Below are positions 971 through 9,232 of a stretch of DNA of 64,000 nucleotides, piece after piece. Both the position numbers and the translations under genes were made by a program. Numbering within the stretch: the stretch's first letter is position 1; every line of letters begins with the position of its first letter. The notes below the pieces were generated by a model. The model was not told the origin of the DNA, made no database searches, and saw only the letters and a program-made list of their open reading frames with translations. The DNA comes from an uncultured Clostridium sp. (GTDB taxonomy: Bacteria > Bacillota > Clostridia > Lachnospirales > Lachnospiraceae), in the NCBI GenBank assembly GCA_900542035.1, contig UQMJ01000011.1, positions 4,993-68,992 on the forward strand, written 5' to 3'.

Positions 971-1074
971 GTTTGATAAGCGGAAATGGTAAAAAGACAC
1001 AAAAAAATAGAGAAATATCAGCTAAAATTGTAGGATTAATCGATTGATATATTGCGTGAGAGGAGATAACTGCG

Positions 1075-1947
1075 ATGGAGAAGATATTTTGGGGAACAGG
1101 TTCGGCAGAAGGCCTGCCAAATCCTGTGTGTGGATGTCTGGCTTGCGAAAGAGCAAGGAAATTGAAAGGAAAGAACATTAGGGGTAGGAGTTCTTTTCAA
1201 GTATCAAAGGATGTTTTATTGGATTTTGGGCCTGATTTTGTGAGTCAGGCTCAGAAAAATGGTGGGGATTTGATGGAACTTCGCCATGTGTTAGTCACAC
1301 ATACCCACTATGACCATTTTTCGTCCTTTGCATTGTGTCAGTTTGCTGGAAGTTTTATATTACCAACAGCCCCTGTTACGTTTTATTTTACAGAAGAAGC
1401 TTATGAAATGGCAAATTATCTTTGCCACGATGAAATGCTTTTACATAATGGATTTCAAGAAACTTTAGAAAGCGGAGCAATCAGGTTTGAACAATTAAAA
1501 TTTTTTGAAAAGAGAAAAATTGGAAATTATGTAGTAATTCCACTACCAGGAAGGCATTTTGGTTCTGTAGAAACTCGTTCTGCAAACTATTTATTTCAAT
1601 TGCCGGAAGGAGATGTTCTTTACTATGGAACAGATACAGGCTATTATTTTCCAGACACAATAAACTTTTTAAAAGAATATCAAATTAATCAATTGATTAC
1701 AGAATGTACCTGGGATGAAAAACATCCTTGTAATTTGGAAACAGATAAACACTTATCATTGTTGGCGTTAAGAAAATTATTGGGAGTTTTGGAAGAACAG
1801 GGAACATTAGGCAGGTTTTCAGAGGTATATCTTACCCATATTAGTCACAGCCATACCCGTTCGCATGAAGAATTGGAAAAATTGGTAAATAACTGGACAG
1901 AATTTCCATTCAAGGTTTGTATTGCCTATGATGGCATGAAAATATAA
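1075..1947 (+). CDS. MBL-fold metallo-hydrolase, PhnP-like phosphodiesterase
   Basis: N-terminal GTGSAEGLPNPVCGCLACERAR Cys-rich segment as in PhnP-type proteins. HTHYDH metal motif. RBS GAGGAG upstream. Confidence 0.7.
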   Translation: MEKIFWGTGSAEGLPNPVCGCLACERARKLKGKNIRGRSSFQVSKDVLLDFGPDFVSQAQKNGGDLMELRHVLVTHTHYDHFSSFALCQFAGSFILPTAPVTFYFTEEAYEMANYLCHDEMLLHNGFQETLESGAIRFEQLKFFEKRKIGNYVVIPLPGRHFGSVETRSANYLFQLPEGDVLYYGTDTGYYFPDTINFLKEYQINQLITECTWDEKHPCNLETDKHLSLLALRKLLGVLEEQGTLGRFSEVYLTHISHSHTRSHEELEKLVNNWTEFPFKVCIAYDGMKI

Positions 1948-1973
1948 TCATGATAAAGGAGGATTTAAAATTT

Positions 1974-3320
1974 ATGAAAAAGAATGCGAAATTATTTCTC
2001 GGGACAGCTACAGCAGTGGTAATTGGAACAACTCTTGCGGGATGCTCCAAAGATGCAGAAGTATCTGTAAGCACAGGGACAGAAAGTACTGTTAATAATG
2101 TGGAAGGTTCTGGAGAAACAAAAAATATTCGGATTTGGCTGGCAGATGGCGCGGAGGCAGAATTTTATAAAACTATGCTTGCAGAAATTGATGAAAAACA
2201 TTCAGAATTTACTATTGAATATGAGATTTATCCAAATGATGAACTAATTAATAAACTACAGCTGGCTCCTTCGGTAGGGGATACTCCAGATGCGGTAGTT
2301 GTGGATGGACTTAGGGTTCCACTATTTATGACACAGGATATGATTGCACCGATTGACGGCTACATTAGCGATGAATTGAAAAATGATTTGCTTCCTTCTG
2401 TATTAGCAGAATGCACATACGGAGAACAGCTTTATGGAGTTGCTCAGTTTGATGCAGGATTATCCTTATGGGGGAATAAGTCTATGTTGGAAGATGCGGG
2501 AGTAAGGATTCCTGCTAGTTATACAGAAGCGTGGACAAAAATGGAATTTGAGGATGCCTTAGCGAAATTAAAAGCAAATGGAGTTGAATATCCTTTATAT
2601 ATTCGACAGAATTCACCTAGAACCTTGTATTATACTTACTTGCCTGTAGTAAAAAGCTTTGGTGGTGACGTTATGAATCGGGAAACCATGCTTACAGAGG
2701 GAACGCTGAATAGTCAGGAAACTATAGAAGCATTTTCTTATATTACTTGGCTGATTGATAATCAGTATATTGATCCATTGTGTGATTATGAGGATGGATT
2801 TTACAATAAGAAAGAAAATGCACTTTCTTTAGTTGGACACTGGGCTACTACTGATATTACAAATGCGTTAGGAGAAGATGCAGTTTTGATTCCAATTCCA
2901 GACTTTGGAAATGGCGTATATACAGGTTCTGGCTCTACTGTATGGACAATGACAACTGCTGCTGTAGAGAATGGAAATGCAGAGGAGACCTGGAGTATTA
3001 TTGAGGAAGCAGTATCACCGGAAAATATTGCTGAGATAACAAAGGCCAATGGCGGAATTCCAGCGAGAAAATCTGTTTTAGAAAAAGATGAGCGTTTTGT
3101 GGAAGGCGGACAGCTTTATTTATATAGAGAACAGCTGGAAGCTGGAATCAGTTATTTAAGACCATTAACTCCGGCTCATCAGACAAATTATGATGCAGTA
3201 GAAAGTGCGGTTTCGAATATTCTGTTAGGCGCAGATGTTAAAAGCGAACTTGATAATGCAGCAGCATCTGTAGATGCTATCATTAAGGAAAATGGGTGGA
3301 ATGAATGGTTAAACAAGTAG
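1974..3320 (+). CDS. sugar ABC transporter substrate-binding lipoprotein (CUT1/family 1 SBP)
   Basis: RBS AAAGGAGGA then ATG at 1974. Signal peptide with lipobox LAGC. Length and composition are typical of MalE/UgpB-type SBPs. Confidence 0.8.
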   Translation: MKKNAKLFLGTATAVVIGTTLAGCSKDAEVSVSTGTESTVNNVEGSGETKNIRIWLADGAEAEFYKTMLAEIDEKHSEFTIEYEIYPNDELINKLQLAPSVGDTPDAVVVDGLRVPLFMTQDMIAPIDGYISDELKNDLLPSVLAECTYGEQLYGVAQFDAGLSLWGNKSMLEDAGVRIPASYTEAWTKMEFEDALAKLKANGVEYPLYIRQNSPRTLYYTYLPVVKSFGGDVMNRETMLTEGTLNSQETIEAFSYITWLIDNQYIDPLCDYEDGFYNKKENALSLVGHWATTDITNALGEDAVLIPIPDFGNGVYTGSGSTVWTMTTAAVENGNAEETWSIIEEAVSPENIAEITKANGGIPARKSVLEKDERFVEGGQLYLYREQLEAGISYLRPLTPAHQTNYDAVESAVSNILLGADVKSELDNAAASVDAIIKENGWNEWLNK

Positions 3321-6188: not shown

Positions 6189-6578
6189 TTACGGATTCAA
6201 TTCTGCAATTCCCGTAACCGCCACATAAATATGGGAAATCCGGTACCAGGTGGCAAAATCCACGACGCCGGTCTGAGGCATACCAAAAATTGACTGGAAT
6301 TCTCGGACGGCTCGGGCTGTAGCAGGGCCGTAGATGCCGTCAACGGTAACATCCGGAATCGCAGTATAAACGGTGGCAATGGCGTCTAACTGTTCCTGCA
6401 GCTGCCGTACCTTGCTTCCGGAAGAACCAATGGTCAGGTCGTAACCTGGCCAGGATGCCGGAATGCCGGAGATTTGTTCCGCTGTATTGACATACATATT
6501 ATCCCCGTAAAAGTGCCGGATAATTTCAATGGGACTGTATCCCTGTTCGCCCAAAGACATAGAGCCCCACTGGGTCAT
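6189..6578 (-). CDS. sleC: spore cortex-lytic enzyme SleC-like, C-terminal segment (3' half of a split gene)
   Basis: Begins MTQWGSMSLGEQGY and ends with a PG_binding_1-like DGIYGPATARAVREFQSIFGMPQTGVVDFATWY. It continues the upstream ORF in frame once 6583-8257 is removed. Confidence 0.8.
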   Translation of the reverse strand: MTQWGSMSLGEQGYSPIEIIRHFYGDNMYVNTAEQISGIPASWPGYDLTIGSSGSKVRQLQEQLDAIATVYTAIPDVTVDGIYGPATARAVREFQSIFGMPQTGVVDFATWYRISHIYVAVTGIAELNP

Positions 6579-7948
6579 CCAAATGGCATCTGCGTATGGT
6601 AATAAATCTGGATTTGGTTTTCTTCTTTTTTATATACGATTTTTTCTACCGACTGTTTTAGGGCGGTGTTTTTTTCTTCCGTGGTAAAATCCGGAGCAAT
6701 CAGCTGGCTGTAAAGAGAAGGAAGGGCAGGTTCCAGTTCTTTTAGCACCATAGGGACGATTACACGTTCGGATACGTAACAATTTTTGGAACAAGACCCT
6801 TTCAGATAGCCGCTGCACTGAAAGGAAAAGGTATCCGGCATGGTTTTTCGCCTGCGTCTGCAGGAAGAAAGGCTTTTTCCGCAGCGGGGACATTTTAATA
6901 TGCCGCCCAGCCAGTGATGGACCAGCTGGCTGGGTTTTGCGTAAGGGAGAGAGCGGGAAGTTTCTTCTGCCAGTCGTTTCTGGACATTTTCAAAAAAATC
7001 CCTGGAAACAATGGCCGGATGGTGCCCGTCGGCCAGAATCCAGTCAGAAGCGTCCCGCACAAGTCCGGTTTTGCTGTCTGTCCGGTTCCAACGGATAATT
7101 CCAGCGTAAAGGGGGTTTTGGAGAATATACTTCACAGCTCGGGTTTCAAAAGGATTTCCCAGAGCGGTACAGATTCCCTGGGCATTCAGTTTTCTGGCAA
7201 TTTCAAAAGGATTTAAAGATTCAGAGCCATACCAGGAAAAGATTTTTTGGACTGTCTGGGCTTCTGGCGGATCAAGTTCTAACTGGCCGTTTACACTGGA
7301 AATCCGGTATCCAAACGGAGGACGGCTCTGGTAGCCGCCGCGGAGCGCTTTCTCTGTCATGCCGCGGCATACGTCTCCGGACAGGCGGATGGAGTAAAAT
7401 TCATCCATCCATTCAATGATTCTCTCAATCAGGCTGCCAAAGGGGCCGTCAATGATTGGCTCAGAAATGCTGATTACATCAACCCCGTATTTTCCGCGGA
7501 GCATGGATTTGTATACAATGCTTTCCTCCTGATTTCGGGCAAAGCGGGAAAATTTCCATACCAAAATAGCGTCAAAAGGGTGTGATTCCGATTTGGCACA
7601 GGCAATCATCTGCTGAAATTGGGGGCGTTTTTGGGCTGTTCTTCCGGAAATGCCGTTTTCCTGAAAAATCCAGGGTTCTTCTACTAAAAACTGGTGTTTA
7701 TCCGCATAGTCCAGAAGCAGCCGTTTTTGGGAATCAGGGGAAAGCTCTTCCTGGCTGTGAGTAGAGACGCGGATGTACAAAGCGGCTTTTTTGGTAGGGG
7801 AGAGAAGAGACAAAGAATCACCTTCCCATAAGGATTTATTAATCCTTATGATGGGAAGCCGTTTCCTATGAAACAAGAAAGAAGCTCGCTTGCGAGCTTC
7901 TCTGCCTGCGGTGGGTCGCTTCTGTGACAAAGTTTCCTTCCGCCGCAT
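6575..7948 (-). CDS. large serine recombinase (SpoIVCA/phage-integrase type)
   Basis: Resolvase catalytic segment AALYIRVSTHSQEELSPDSQ, a recombinase domain and a Cys-rich zinc-ribbon segment CPRCGKSL...C. The start is uncertain: ATG 7948 (RBS GAGGA) or TTG 7813 (RBS GGAAGG). The first 45 codons of the long form run through hairpins. The stop TGA at 6575-6577 overlaps the junction core. Confidence 0.9.
   Translation of the reverse strand: MRRKETLSQKRPTAGREARKRASFLFHRKRLPIIRINKSLWEGDSLSLLSPTKKAALYIRVSTHSQEELSPDSQKRLLLDYADKHQFLVEEPWIFQENGISGRTAQKRPQFQQMIACAKSESHPFDAILVWKFSRFARNQEESIVYKSMLRGKYGVDVISISEPIIDGPFGSLIERIIEWMDEFYSIRLSGDVCRGMTEKALRGGYQSRPPFGYRISSVNGQLELDPPEAQTVQKIFSWYGSESLNPFEIARKLNAQGICTALGNPFETRAVKYILQNPLYAGIIRWNRTDSKTGLVRDASDWILADGHHPAIVSRDFFENVQKRLAEETSRSLPYAKPSQLVHHWLGGILKCPRCGKSLSSCRRRRKTMPDTFSFQCSGYLKGSCSKNCYVSERVIVPMVLKELEPALPSLYSQLIAPDFTTEEKNTALKQSVEKIVYKKEENQIQIYYHTQMPFG
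7871..7901 (-). terminator. terminator-like hairpin upstream of the recombinase catalytic domain
   Basis: On the minus strand, AGAAGCTCGCAAGCGAGCTTCT is followed by TTCTTGTTT. Confidence 0.45.
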
Positions 7949-8001
7949 GGCAATCCTCGCAGAGCGTTTTTTATTTTATGGGAAGCCATTTCCCATGAAA
8001 T

Positions 8002-8029
8002 AAAAAAACTGCCGCACCAAATGCGACAG
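8002..8029 (-). terminator. rho-independent terminator of the tRNA-Glu gene
   Basis: On the minus strand, CTGTCGCA-TTTGG-TGCGGCAG is followed by TTTTTTT, 9 nt after the tRNA 3' end. Confidence 0.75.
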
Positions 8030-8037
8030 TTCTAAAG

Positions 8038-8109
8038 TGACCTCATCGGGAATCGAACCCGAGTTTACGCCGTGAGAGGGCGTCGTCTTAACCGCTTGAC
8101 CATGAGGCC
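8038..8109 (-). tRNA. tRNA-Glu (anticodon CUC), no encoded CCA
   Basis: Hand-folded 72-nt cloverleaf: acceptor GGCCTCA/TGAGGTC (one G-U), D arm GTCAAGCGGTTAAGAC, anticodon stem ACGCC/GGCGT with loop CT-CTC-AC, T arm TCGGG-TTCGATT-CCCGA, discriminator A. It closely resembles Firmicute tRNA-Glu. Confidence 0.85.
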
Positions 8110-8126
8110 GTATTCAAACCTCGGTT

Positions 8127-8155
8127 ATAATAACATGGATTGCAGAAAAATGCAA
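8127..8155 (-). promoter_or_regulatory. sigma-A promoter driving tRNA-Glu
   Basis: On the minus strand, TTGCAT, a 17-nt spacer, then TGT-TATTAT (extended -10). An A/T-rich tract lies upstream. The -10 lies about 18 nt upstream of the mature tRNA 5' end. Confidence 0.65.
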
Positions 8156-8190
8156 GCACTTTTTCAAAAAAATTAAAAAATTTAAATTTT

Positions 8191-9132
8191 TCAATGAAAT
8201 ACCAATTTCTCCCATGTCACTGGGAAATGAATACCCATACTCCCAAAGGCCATCCAATTGGGGCAGCGAACCTGTTTTCCGTCGCAGTACTGGGTTAAAA
8301 TCGGCTGCCGGACGCCTGGCCTTGATAAGTAGCTGTCAAAGATTTCATCGACAATTACAGAAATGGTTTCAAAAATATTTCGCTCAAAAATCCACTTATG
8401 ATCAAACGCAGTAGAGGAAGTAATGGTAAAATCATGGCCCTGGTTGCGGTACCATTCGGTATAGACACGGTTTAAGGTAAAGGACATGATGGCAAGCACG
8501 TTTGCGGTTATGGTCGATCTGGGCCAGGTAGAGTAAATTTCACTGGAAGCTACGTTTTTAATATAGTCTCGGTAAGGCACATAATAATTAGGTGCGCTTT
8601 CATTAGACGGGGGGCCATCGTGGACCACAATGGTCTGGGGAATGACTACTCGGCTTAACACAATCTCGCCGCTTTCCCGTACGGGCTTGATTTCGGACTC
8701 TGCAATTTTCGGCGGATAATCGCCTACCAGGGTGTGTTCAGGGATGGTAATGAGGGACTGTTCCCCAGGCTGGCTTTCCGGCGTCATACGGATCGGCTGG
8801 ATGGCGGTAGAGTCGGGAAGAATTTCCGTGCCGCTTACAGTAAGAGGGCGAAAACCAGGAGCTTCTACAGAAACCACATATTCGGAGTAAGGAGTTGGGG
8901 CATTGGGATCAAAGCTGTAATCCAGGGGAGGAGCAGGAAGGGAAATTTGCTCTGTCTGACCGGAAGAATTGACGGAAACTTGTTCGATAATGGTTTCCGG
9001 ATTGTTTTTGGAAGAAATAGAAATGGTTGCATCTGTAACCGGAAAATTATTTTGAACAGAGACCACATTGACCTGTAAAAGCCCGCGGGAAGTAAGAGAT
9101 GGGGTTGTCTGGGCTGCATGGAGAAGATTCAT
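8191..9132 (-). CDS. sleC: spore cortex-lytic enzyme SleC-like, N-terminal segment (5' half of a split gene, reading into the element)
   Basis: RBS AGGAGGG then ATG at 9132. Contains IASSEIYSTWP, FTLNRVYTEWYRN and QYCDGKQVRCPNWM. After the junction at 8251 come 19 unrelated codons and a stop. Confidence 0.8.
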   Translation of the reverse strand: MNLLHAAQTTPSLTSRGLLQVNVVSVQNNFPVTDATISISSKNNPETIIEQVSVNSSGQTEQISLPAPPLDYSFDPNAPTPYSEYVVSVEAPGFRPLTVSGTEILPDSTAIQPIRMTPESQPGEQSLITIPEHTLVGDYPPKIAESEIKPVRESGEIVLSRVVIPQTIVVHDGPPSNESAPNYYVPYRDYIKNVASSEIYSTWPRSTITANVLAIMSFTLNRVYTEWYRNQGHDFTITSSTAFDHKWIFERNIFETISVIVDEIFDSYLSRPGVRQPILTQYCDGKQVRCPNWMAFGSMGIHFPVTWEKLVFH

Positions 9133-9232
9133 ACAAAACCCTCCTGTTTTCAATTACTATTAATATATAAAAATGGGAAAAATTGATGCCAGTCCATAAC
9201 CAATATTCATAGAACCCATTCCTTTTAATTAA

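Follow-up and report, generated by a model that had tools for sequence, protein, structure and literature searches.

A tRNA-Glu(CUC) gene carried by a small sleC-intervening element of Lachnospiraceae

The 64-kb stretch of DNA analyzed here (the window; all positions and strands are those of the whole stretch) comes from an uncultured Clostridium sp. of the Lachnospiraceae and holds a single tRNA gene, a tRNA-Glu with the anticodon CUC (CTC in the DNA). We found this gene inside a 1,675-bp element that interrupts sleC, the gene for a spore cortex-lytic enzyme, and whose only conserved open reading frame (ORF) encodes a large serine recombinase. We consider it probable, at roughly 0.6, that the tRNA is functional and of host type, that it is the sole passenger of a domesticated prophage remnant, and that, selected as an extra gene copy, it may incidentally penalize loss of the element. 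That the tRNA has a real stabilizing effect on the element is a separate claim, which we regard as doubtful.

An element with one tRNA and one recombinase in sleC

Junction comparison placed the borders of the element at two copies of a TTGGATG core, one at each junction with a half of sleC (Table 1). This sleC junction is common to all 16 loci analyzed, and the element arms beside it form an imperfect inverted repeat. As long as the element is integrated, the ORF of the sleC 5' part runs on through 19 element-encoded codons to a stop at 8191. The rejoined protein of 422 aa matched PDB 9h68, the "spore cortex-lytic enzyme pre-pro-form" (SleC), with E = 1.6e-137, and its junction (...QVRCPNWM/TQWGS...) is the same as in intact homologs of 416-421 aa from Hungatella, Enterocloster, and Lacrimispora (P0132, P0169, and P0198). 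The element splits a sporulation gene, is bounded by a repeated core, restores the reading frame on its removal, and has its own recombinase at its edge; it is a sporulation gene-intervening element, like skin, SPbeta, gin, and yin. It was 100% identical in four independent human-gut metagenome assemblies.

Within the element lie the tRNA unit, the recombinase gene, located downstream of it in the same orientation, and a 127-bp duplication specific to the window; the 1,675 bp yielded no further conserved ORF or Rfam match. A sequence-only reading of the same DNA had pointed to the tRNA as the sole cargo of a gene-disrupting element of about 1.7 kb and had called this unusual, and the lack of any other conserved non-recombinase gene bears it out. 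At the 3' border, the TGA that ends the recombinase gene shares bases with both the crossover core and the start codon (ATG) of the sleC 3' part (6575-6582), and in the predicted excised circle the recombinase ORF would extend by 11 codons (WPLGVWVFISQ).

ARAGORN and Rfam agreed on the tRNA itself: the Rfam tRNA model (RF00005) matched 8038..8109 over its full length (64.3 bits, E = 7e-13; gathering score, 29), and the minimum-free-energy fold is a cloverleaf. The promoter, read from the sequence, consists of a -35 element TTGCAT (8155..8150), a 17-nt spacer, and an extended -10 element with TG at 8135-8134 and TATTAT at 8132..8127. It was absent from the list of a consensus scan because the -35 element agrees at just three of the six consensus bases. 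The layout TTGCwT-17-TGnTATTAT is legible 5' of the tRNA in 10 of the 12 compared loci with an element-borne tRNA-Glu (recombinases 62-79% identical); L018 and L019 have a similar -10 element placed further upstream of the tRNA. The terminator hairpin, which the terminator scan found together with its T-run, is kept in the seven closest relatives (L002-L008). The sequence-only reading had described a real tRNA-Glu(CUC) in this place, upstream of the recombinase and on its strand, with an extended -10 promoter and a terminator of its own, and all of this stands, though with the modest -35 match just given. As judged from the sequence, the tRNA-Glu(CUC) is a genuine, independent transcription unit with a putative promoter and terminator of its own.

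The tRNA differs at no more than 3 of 72 nt (at least 96% identity) among the eight species of the clade whose recombinases lack a coiled-coil (see below), though synonymous divergence (dS) there is saturated (1-2). Where the three element-borne variants of the tRNA differ, in the acceptor, anticodon, and T stems, the changes are paired and compensatory. The exact tRNA of the window also occurs in a metagenome-assembled genome (MAG) of Hungatella, where it sits beside tRNA-Val(CAC) in an ordinary context without a recombinase. No CCA end is encoded at the gene, as would suit a functionless pseudogene or a tRNA-like remnant; yet the full-length match at 64.3 bits, the identity to the chromosomal tRNA of the Hungatella MAG, the compensatory stem changes, and the conserved promoter and terminator leave that explanation a practically negligible chance. 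The element tRNA is best read as a working extra copy of tRNA-Glu(CUC), its expression being predicted from the conserved promoter and terminator.

Table 1. Features of the element and of the split sleC gene (positions in the window)
Feature	Position	Strand	Basis
tRNA-Glu(CUC)	8037..8109	minus	ARAGORN, Rfam RF00005, cloverleaf minimum-free-energy fold, low divergence, compensatory stem changes
Putative sigma-A-type promoter of the tRNA	8127..8155	minus	read from sequence; layout recurs in relatives
Predicted intrinsic terminator of the tRNA, stem ACTGTCGCA/TGCGGCAGT then T-run	7998..8033 (hairpin 8033..8005)	minus	terminator scan
Intervening element, 1,675 bp, one core copy counted	6583..8257	minus	junction comparison
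attL core TTGGATG (sleC 5' half / element)	8251..8257	minus	junction comparison
attR core TTGGATG (element / sleC 3' half)	6576..6582	minus	junction comparison
sleC 5' part, ATG at 9132 (ORF 8191..9153)	8251..9132	minus	PDB 9h68 match of rejoined protein
sleC 3' part, PG_binding_1 domain	6189..6578	minus	Pfam
Large serine recombinase, 412 aa	6575..7813 (ORF 6575..7948)	minus	Pfam, PHROG, AlphaFold2, Foldseek
Candidate promoter region of the recombinase	7814..7860	minus	intergenic regions of seven mini-elements compared by eye
Second terminator-like hairpin, in the window-specific duplication	7878..7903	minus	terminator scan and repeat comparison

The duplication lies between the tRNA and the recombinase (within 7851-8007) and is marked by 30-nt repeats at 7851-7880 and 7978-8007, each directly after a terminator hairpin (7903..7878 and 8033..8005, respectively). 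Both the duplication and the second hairpin are absent from L002-L008.

Relatives and probable prophage origin of the element

We surveyed species-representative genomes for the recombinase and took its 80 best relatives, the majority of which adjoin a sleC half. In the seven closest (69-79% identity), tRNA-Glu(CUC) lies just upstream of the recombinase on the same strand, and it also stands beside the recombinase in L012, L013, L017, L018, and L019. tRNA-Val(GAC) takes the position of tRNA-Glu in L021, L023, and L024. No linked tRNA was found among relatives of 55% identity or less. A complete census of the tRNA sequence variant added one genome, so that the recombinase-tRNA pair, which the sequence-only reading had proposed to look for elsewhere, recurs at a split sleC in 13 genomes with tRNA-Glu, and in three with tRNA-Val.

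Across 16 loci, the elements measure 1,541-3,695 bp. The six smallest (1.5-1.9 kb, the window's included) hold only the tRNA and the recombinase, and larger ones retain a phage endolysin gene (PHROG 435), an XRE-type gene, and a small acidic ORF divergent to the recombinase. In a neighbor-joining tree of the recombinases, the tRNA-linked elements group together except L014, and the tRNA-Val elements form one sub-branch. L014, a MAG, has an endolysin(-)/tRNA-Glu(+) block (1008-3301 of that locus) just upstream of the sleC 5' part; L018 and L019 have this block inside the element. The L014 region is flanked by an inverted repeat of 145 bp (233-377 and 3157-3301; 95% identical), suggesting a rearrangement.

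Measured against the window, the ratio of nonsynonymous to synonymous divergence (dN/dS) is 0.03-0.06 for the sleC 5' half, 0.01-0.03 for the sleC 3' half, and 0.06-0.14 for the recombinase, in each case at a dS of 1-2. Both halves of sleC are under strong purifying selection, suggesting that the split gene is still used and that precise excision of the element would be required. The order ilvC-ilvN-sleC::element is kept in L002 and L004-L008 at 81-90% DNA identity (L003 is without the upstream flank), and no intact SleC above 77% identity was found among 5.8 billion proteins; the split state is therefore fixed and vertically inherited in the clade.

On this evidence, the element looks like an old prophage remnant, passed on vertically. 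Recombinases of the same family lie at the ends of 30-50-kb proviruses in IMG/VR, directly adjoining sleC halves; among deposited phage genomes, no relative above 40% identity was found. The tRNA itself does not seem to have come with the phage. In 80 IMG/VR loci with this integrase family, where up to 6 kb upstream of the integrase was covered, there was no tRNA, and the tRNA pattern hit only five IMG/VR contigs; in four of these it belonged to a host-type Pro/Thr tRNA cluster, and this recombinase was on none of the five. We reject an origin as phage cargo (a phage auxiliary tRNA) on these relatives, tRNA-less over the stretch of up to 6 kb covered, and on the host-type context of four of the five IMG/VR matches. 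More generally, sleC is a common integration site of one family of 30-50-kb serine-integrase prophages across Lachnospiraceae (L025-L079; IMG/VR L200-L279), with hosts in Blautia, Dorea, Roseburia, Mediterraneibacter, Anaerocolumna, and others and with insertions in both orientations.

The recombinase and its predicted excision reaction

The recombinase probably starts at a TTG at 7813, with GGAAGGTGA as its ribosome-binding site. It has the Pfam domains Resolvase (PF00239), Recombinase (PF07508), and Zn_ribbon_recom (PF13408) and matched PHROG 95, an integrase family, with E = 1e-91. Foldseek with the structural model of the recombinase returned the integrases of SPbeta (top, integrase complexes), Bxb1, LI, and phiC31. 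Compared with relatives of 500 aa, the recombinases of the mini-elements (407-420 aa) miss ∼95 aa directly after the zinc ribbon. The AlphaFold2 model of a 502-aa relative (P0018) has two helices here, 373-404 and 410-436, at the position of the integrase coiled-coil and with a predicted local distance difference test score of ∼88-90; the model of the window recombinase is without both long helices and continues straight into the C-terminal strands. By alignment and model alike, the window recombinase is without the coiled-coil motif of large serine integrases. The deletion is common to all eight mini-element species, whose recombinases form one sub-clade in the neighbor-joining tree. They would thus be a natural counterpart of engineered coiled-coil-deleted integrases, and we predict that they are active.

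The long recombinases have a further feature, a small acidic ORF of 50-80 aa that lies immediately upstream of and divergent to the recombinase. It was recognized with a hidden Markov model (HMM) in L012, L013, L014, L017, L018, and L019 (E-values of 1e-12 to 1e-27), and it occupies the same position in the tRNA-less L040, L042, and L048; examples are 1838-2008 of the L018 element and 3696-3854 of L048, both on the minus strand. The HMM found no such ORF in the window or in L002-L008, that is, in all coiled-coil-less elements, nor in the tRNA-Val element L021, and PHROG families gave no match to the ORFs of the relatives. We consider this small ORF a candidate directionality factor, which may have been lost together with its presumed docking site. 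In the window element, where the recombinase is the only conserved ORF, no element-encoded recombination directionality factor (RDF) was found. An ORF of 47 aa (7846..7989) was considered as a hidden one and rejected: it has no Pfam match, spans the duplication with its terminator hairpin, and is absent from L002-L008. Reduced elements can hold other genes as well; L040 (2616-3023, minus strand) and L042 (3065-3493, minus strand) have an ORF of 135-142 aa that, by eye, resembles the C-terminal DNA-binding domain of Spo0A.

An LI integrase without its coiled-coil yields attL x attR deletion products in vitro without a directionality factor, and the wild type yields none (PMC5499577). With the coiled-coil and the small ORF both lost, excision is probably factor-independent and one-way, and by analogy we infer that the window element would excise in this manner whenever its recombinase is made. 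In seven mini-elements compared by eye, a TCATAA (CATA-type, -10-like) is conserved ∼35 nt upstream of the recombinase start, with no consistent -35 element; it might be a CATA-type mother-cell promoter, conceivably one for sigma-E or sigma-K.

The preferred reading would then run as follows. During growth, and also in the forespore, the element would remain integrated, and the tRNA would be transcribed from its sigma-A-type extended -10 promoter, end at its own hairpin, be processed, receive its CCA, and decode GAG as an additional copy beside the chromosomal tRNA-Glu(CUC). Its terminator, duplicated in the window, may shield the recombinase gene from this constitutive transcription. In the mother cell, presumably the time at which the coiled-coil-less recombinase is made from its own promoter, the enzyme would join the two TTGGATG cores, remove the tRNA-bearing circle, and restore sleC in a factor-independent, one-way reaction. 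Ordinary purifying selection on a useful gene copy would keep the tRNA, and, as a side effect, loss of the element from the germ line would cost a little tRNA dosage.

tRNA copies, retention, and known elements

We looked for further copies of tRNA-Glu(CUC) with a degenerate tRNA pattern in species-representative genomes, mostly MAGs, and report on the matches listed; the window's own genome lies outside this collection. For the A/B sequence variant of the tRNA, the census is complete and comprises 73 copies in 48 assemblies, of which 13 have it in the element and the rest in chromosomal clusters. In related Lachnospiraceae, tRNA-Glu(CUC) usually belongs to a Pro(CGG)-Glu(CUC)-Thr(CGU) cluster, and many genomes have at least two copies. 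The sequence-only reading had taken the CUC isoacceptor for an accessory decoder, since most Firmicutes decode GAA and GAG with tRNA-Glu(UUC); in these Lachnospiraceae it is neither an oddity nor a special decoder but a standard chromosomal gene, usually in the Pro-Glu-Thr cluster and often in several copies.

This conserved cluster brings together the C34 tRNAs Pro(CGG), Glu(CUC), and Thr(CGU) (L082-L199 and L289-L325), and beside a divergent Gln(UUG) there is often another Pro(CGG)-Glu(CUC) pair. tRNA-Glu(CUC) is also found standing alone, with a promoter and terminator of its own, at several unrelated sites. We considered such solo units as relics of the element and rejected the idea: L180 adjoins the spoIIIA operon and L175 citrate lyase genes, with no recombinase or sleC.

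Several results weigh against the preferred reading. A chromosomal tRNA-Glu(CUC) is present in all seven checkable related genomes that have a linked tRNA and a split sleC (L002, L006, L012, L014, L017, L018, and L019); this cluster copy is on another contig, and the linked tRNA is element-internal in six of the seven. The two copies are 100% identical in L012, L014, L017, and L019 and differ in the acceptor stem in the others. For L002, the closest relative, the second tRNA-Glu(CUC) is seen at L183, and no element-bearing genome without a second copy was demonstrable among the genomes checked. GAG makes up 34% of the Glu codons in the long ORFs of the window, and the recombinase has 5 GAG against 24 GAA codons; the element's genes scarcely use GAG. 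In L014, the tRNA is just upstream of the sleC 5' part and outside the element. Other lineages (L040 and L042) retain reduced sleC elements of 2.6-3.0 kb that have no tRNA, and the tRNA is therefore dispensable for the persistence of such elements. On the side of excision, the coiled-coil-less LI integrase excises weakly in vitro (PMC5499577), and the predicted attB (CAATTGGATGACCCAGTGG) and attP (CCATTTGGATGGCCTTTGGG) junctions were not found in JGI metagenome contigs, a result that carries no weight, as the species may be missing from them.

The chromosomal copies bear most directly on a strong form of addiction, in which the element holds the genome's only tRNA-Glu(CUC), and germ-line loss would lead to poor GAG decoding and be selected out. 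The window has no second copy within its 64 kb, as this would require, but the chromosomal copy in seven of seven related genomes and the usual state of the family, two or more copies per genome, make it scarcely credible; for the relatives, we reject a sole copy on the chromosomal copies found by the pattern scan (among the matches listed) and by the variant census. Any benefit of the tRNA would therefore be one of dosage only. The proposal of the sequence-only reading that the tRNA selects for retention of the element survives to this extent, as a possible gene-dosage effect, and is weakened by the identical copies in relatives and by the tRNA-less elements that persist. That reading had itself named identical copies elsewhere as a finding that would speak against it, and they exist in relatives L012, L014, L017, and L019.

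The redundancy of a host-type tRNA, the persistence of tRNA-less reduced elements, and the tRNA of L014 outside its element would also be expected of a frozen accident: a host tRNA copy landed in the ancestral element, has been kept like any tRNA gene, and adds nothing to the persistence of the element, which would rest on strictly mother-cell excision or on a use in delaying sleC. The attL/tRNA/recombinase spacing varies as well (85-1,546 nt and 111-1,329 nt), and therefore no fixed architecture is needed. Yet the mini-elements have lost the endolysin, the XRE gene, the small ORF, and the coiled-coil, while the tRNA unit survives in eight of eight species; a redundant gene would be expected to have been lost at least once, and in the sister branch tRNA-Val(GAC) occupies the same position. 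We hold a frozen accident to be possible, if on the unlikely side.

A bolder reading makes the tRNA (Glu-CUC, or Val-GAC in the sister branch) a selected anchor, the minimal anti-loss module of the smallest developmental excision element known. Once the coiled-coil and the directionality factor were gone, excision would have become factor-independent and irreversible, leaky vegetative excision would mean permanent loss, and the element would be retained in the long term only in lineages where its loss also removes a useful tRNA copy. We think this quite unlikely.

A role in cis was also weighed, with the tRNA unit as an insulator and terminator that keeps read-through from the sleC promoter out of the recombinase gene, or, being strongly transcribed, as a supplier of local supercoiling for a coiled-coil-less recombinase. 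In every tRNA-containing element, the unit points the same way as sleC and the recombinase gene and is located between attL and that gene; the position accepts either of two different tRNAs; and LI integrase without its coiled-coil works on substrates that are supercoiled and intramolecular (PMC5499577). However, the spacing is highly variable, with two genes between tRNA and recombinase in L008; the tRNA linkage is older than the loss of the coiled-coil; tRNA-less relatives work without the unit; and the compensatory changes put the mature tRNA sequence itself under selection, beyond promoter and terminator. We judge such a role very unlikely and return to the preferred reading, a host-type extra copy in a domesticated prophage remnant, in comparing the element with known ones.

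Intervening elements have been described in sigK, spsM, gerE, yabG, cotJC, and spoIIID. The skin elements span 2.6-48 kb and 2-67 proteins, the minimal forms having 2.6 kb and two proteins (Galperin et al., bioRxiv 10.1101/2022.02.25.481979). In the literature outside subscription journals, we found no report of a sleC-intervening element or of a tRNA in an intervening element. Like skin with SpoIVCA, the sleC element appears prophage-derived, splits a mother-cell sporulation gene, and has its recombinase at the edge by the 3' fragment in the same orientation; as in skin, the recombinase is the only gene shared among elements. Unlike skin, it sits in sleC rather than sigK, is smaller (1.5-1.7 kb), has a single protein, the recombinase without a coiled-coil, carries a tRNA gene, and shows no directionality-factor candidate.

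In SPbeta/spsM (SprA and SprB) and skinCd (CD1231 and CD1234), a large serine recombinase likewise restores a sporulation gene, and directionality needs an RDF (SprB and CD1234, respectively), whose expression sets the timing (PMC4191935, PMC5499854, PMC5025042). Here, by contrast, the coiled-coil that RDFs target is deleted, and the small upstream ORF is lost. The gin element in Bacillus cereus gerE (GirC and GirX) resembles the sleC element in having no phage structural genes and excising at a short repeated core, but it comprises 31 genes, with three recombinases, and depends on GirX (PMC5595907), whereas the sleC element has one recombinase, one tRNA, and a clear prophage lineage. The coiled-coil deletion mutant of the LI (A118-type) integrase, also a large serine recombinase without this motif, is a laboratory construct with weak activity (PMC5499577); the mini-element recombinases form a natural lineage under purifying selection in eight species, with activity predicted. 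As with phage-encoded tRNA genes, the tRNA is on DNA of apparent phage origin; unlike them, it has no counterpart within 6 kb of the integrase in full-size sleC prophages, and its sequence is identical to host chromosomal copies. The element is thus of a known kind, a sporulation gene-intervening element with a large serine recombinase, and four things about it are new: the target, the size, the tRNA passenger, and the joint loss of the coiled-coil and a candidate helper.

Programmed DNA rearrangement has a classic example in the elements that are excised from sporulation genes during development, and why genomes retain them is a standing question. The sleC mini-elements appear to be the smallest form, one recombinase and one tRNA in 1.5-1.7 kb, and, being fixed throughout a clade of Lachnospiraceae that are common in the human and mouse gut, they offer a simple experimental system for questions of retention and excision. 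Their interest lies mainly in the conserved minimal architecture and in the natural coiled-coil-less recombinase; if it is true that this enzyme excises without a partner, it would be relevant to integrase directionality and to genome-engineering tools. In many gut genomes, the split sleC and its tRNA are likely mis-annotated, as a pseudogene or as two "peptidoglycan-binding" fragments.

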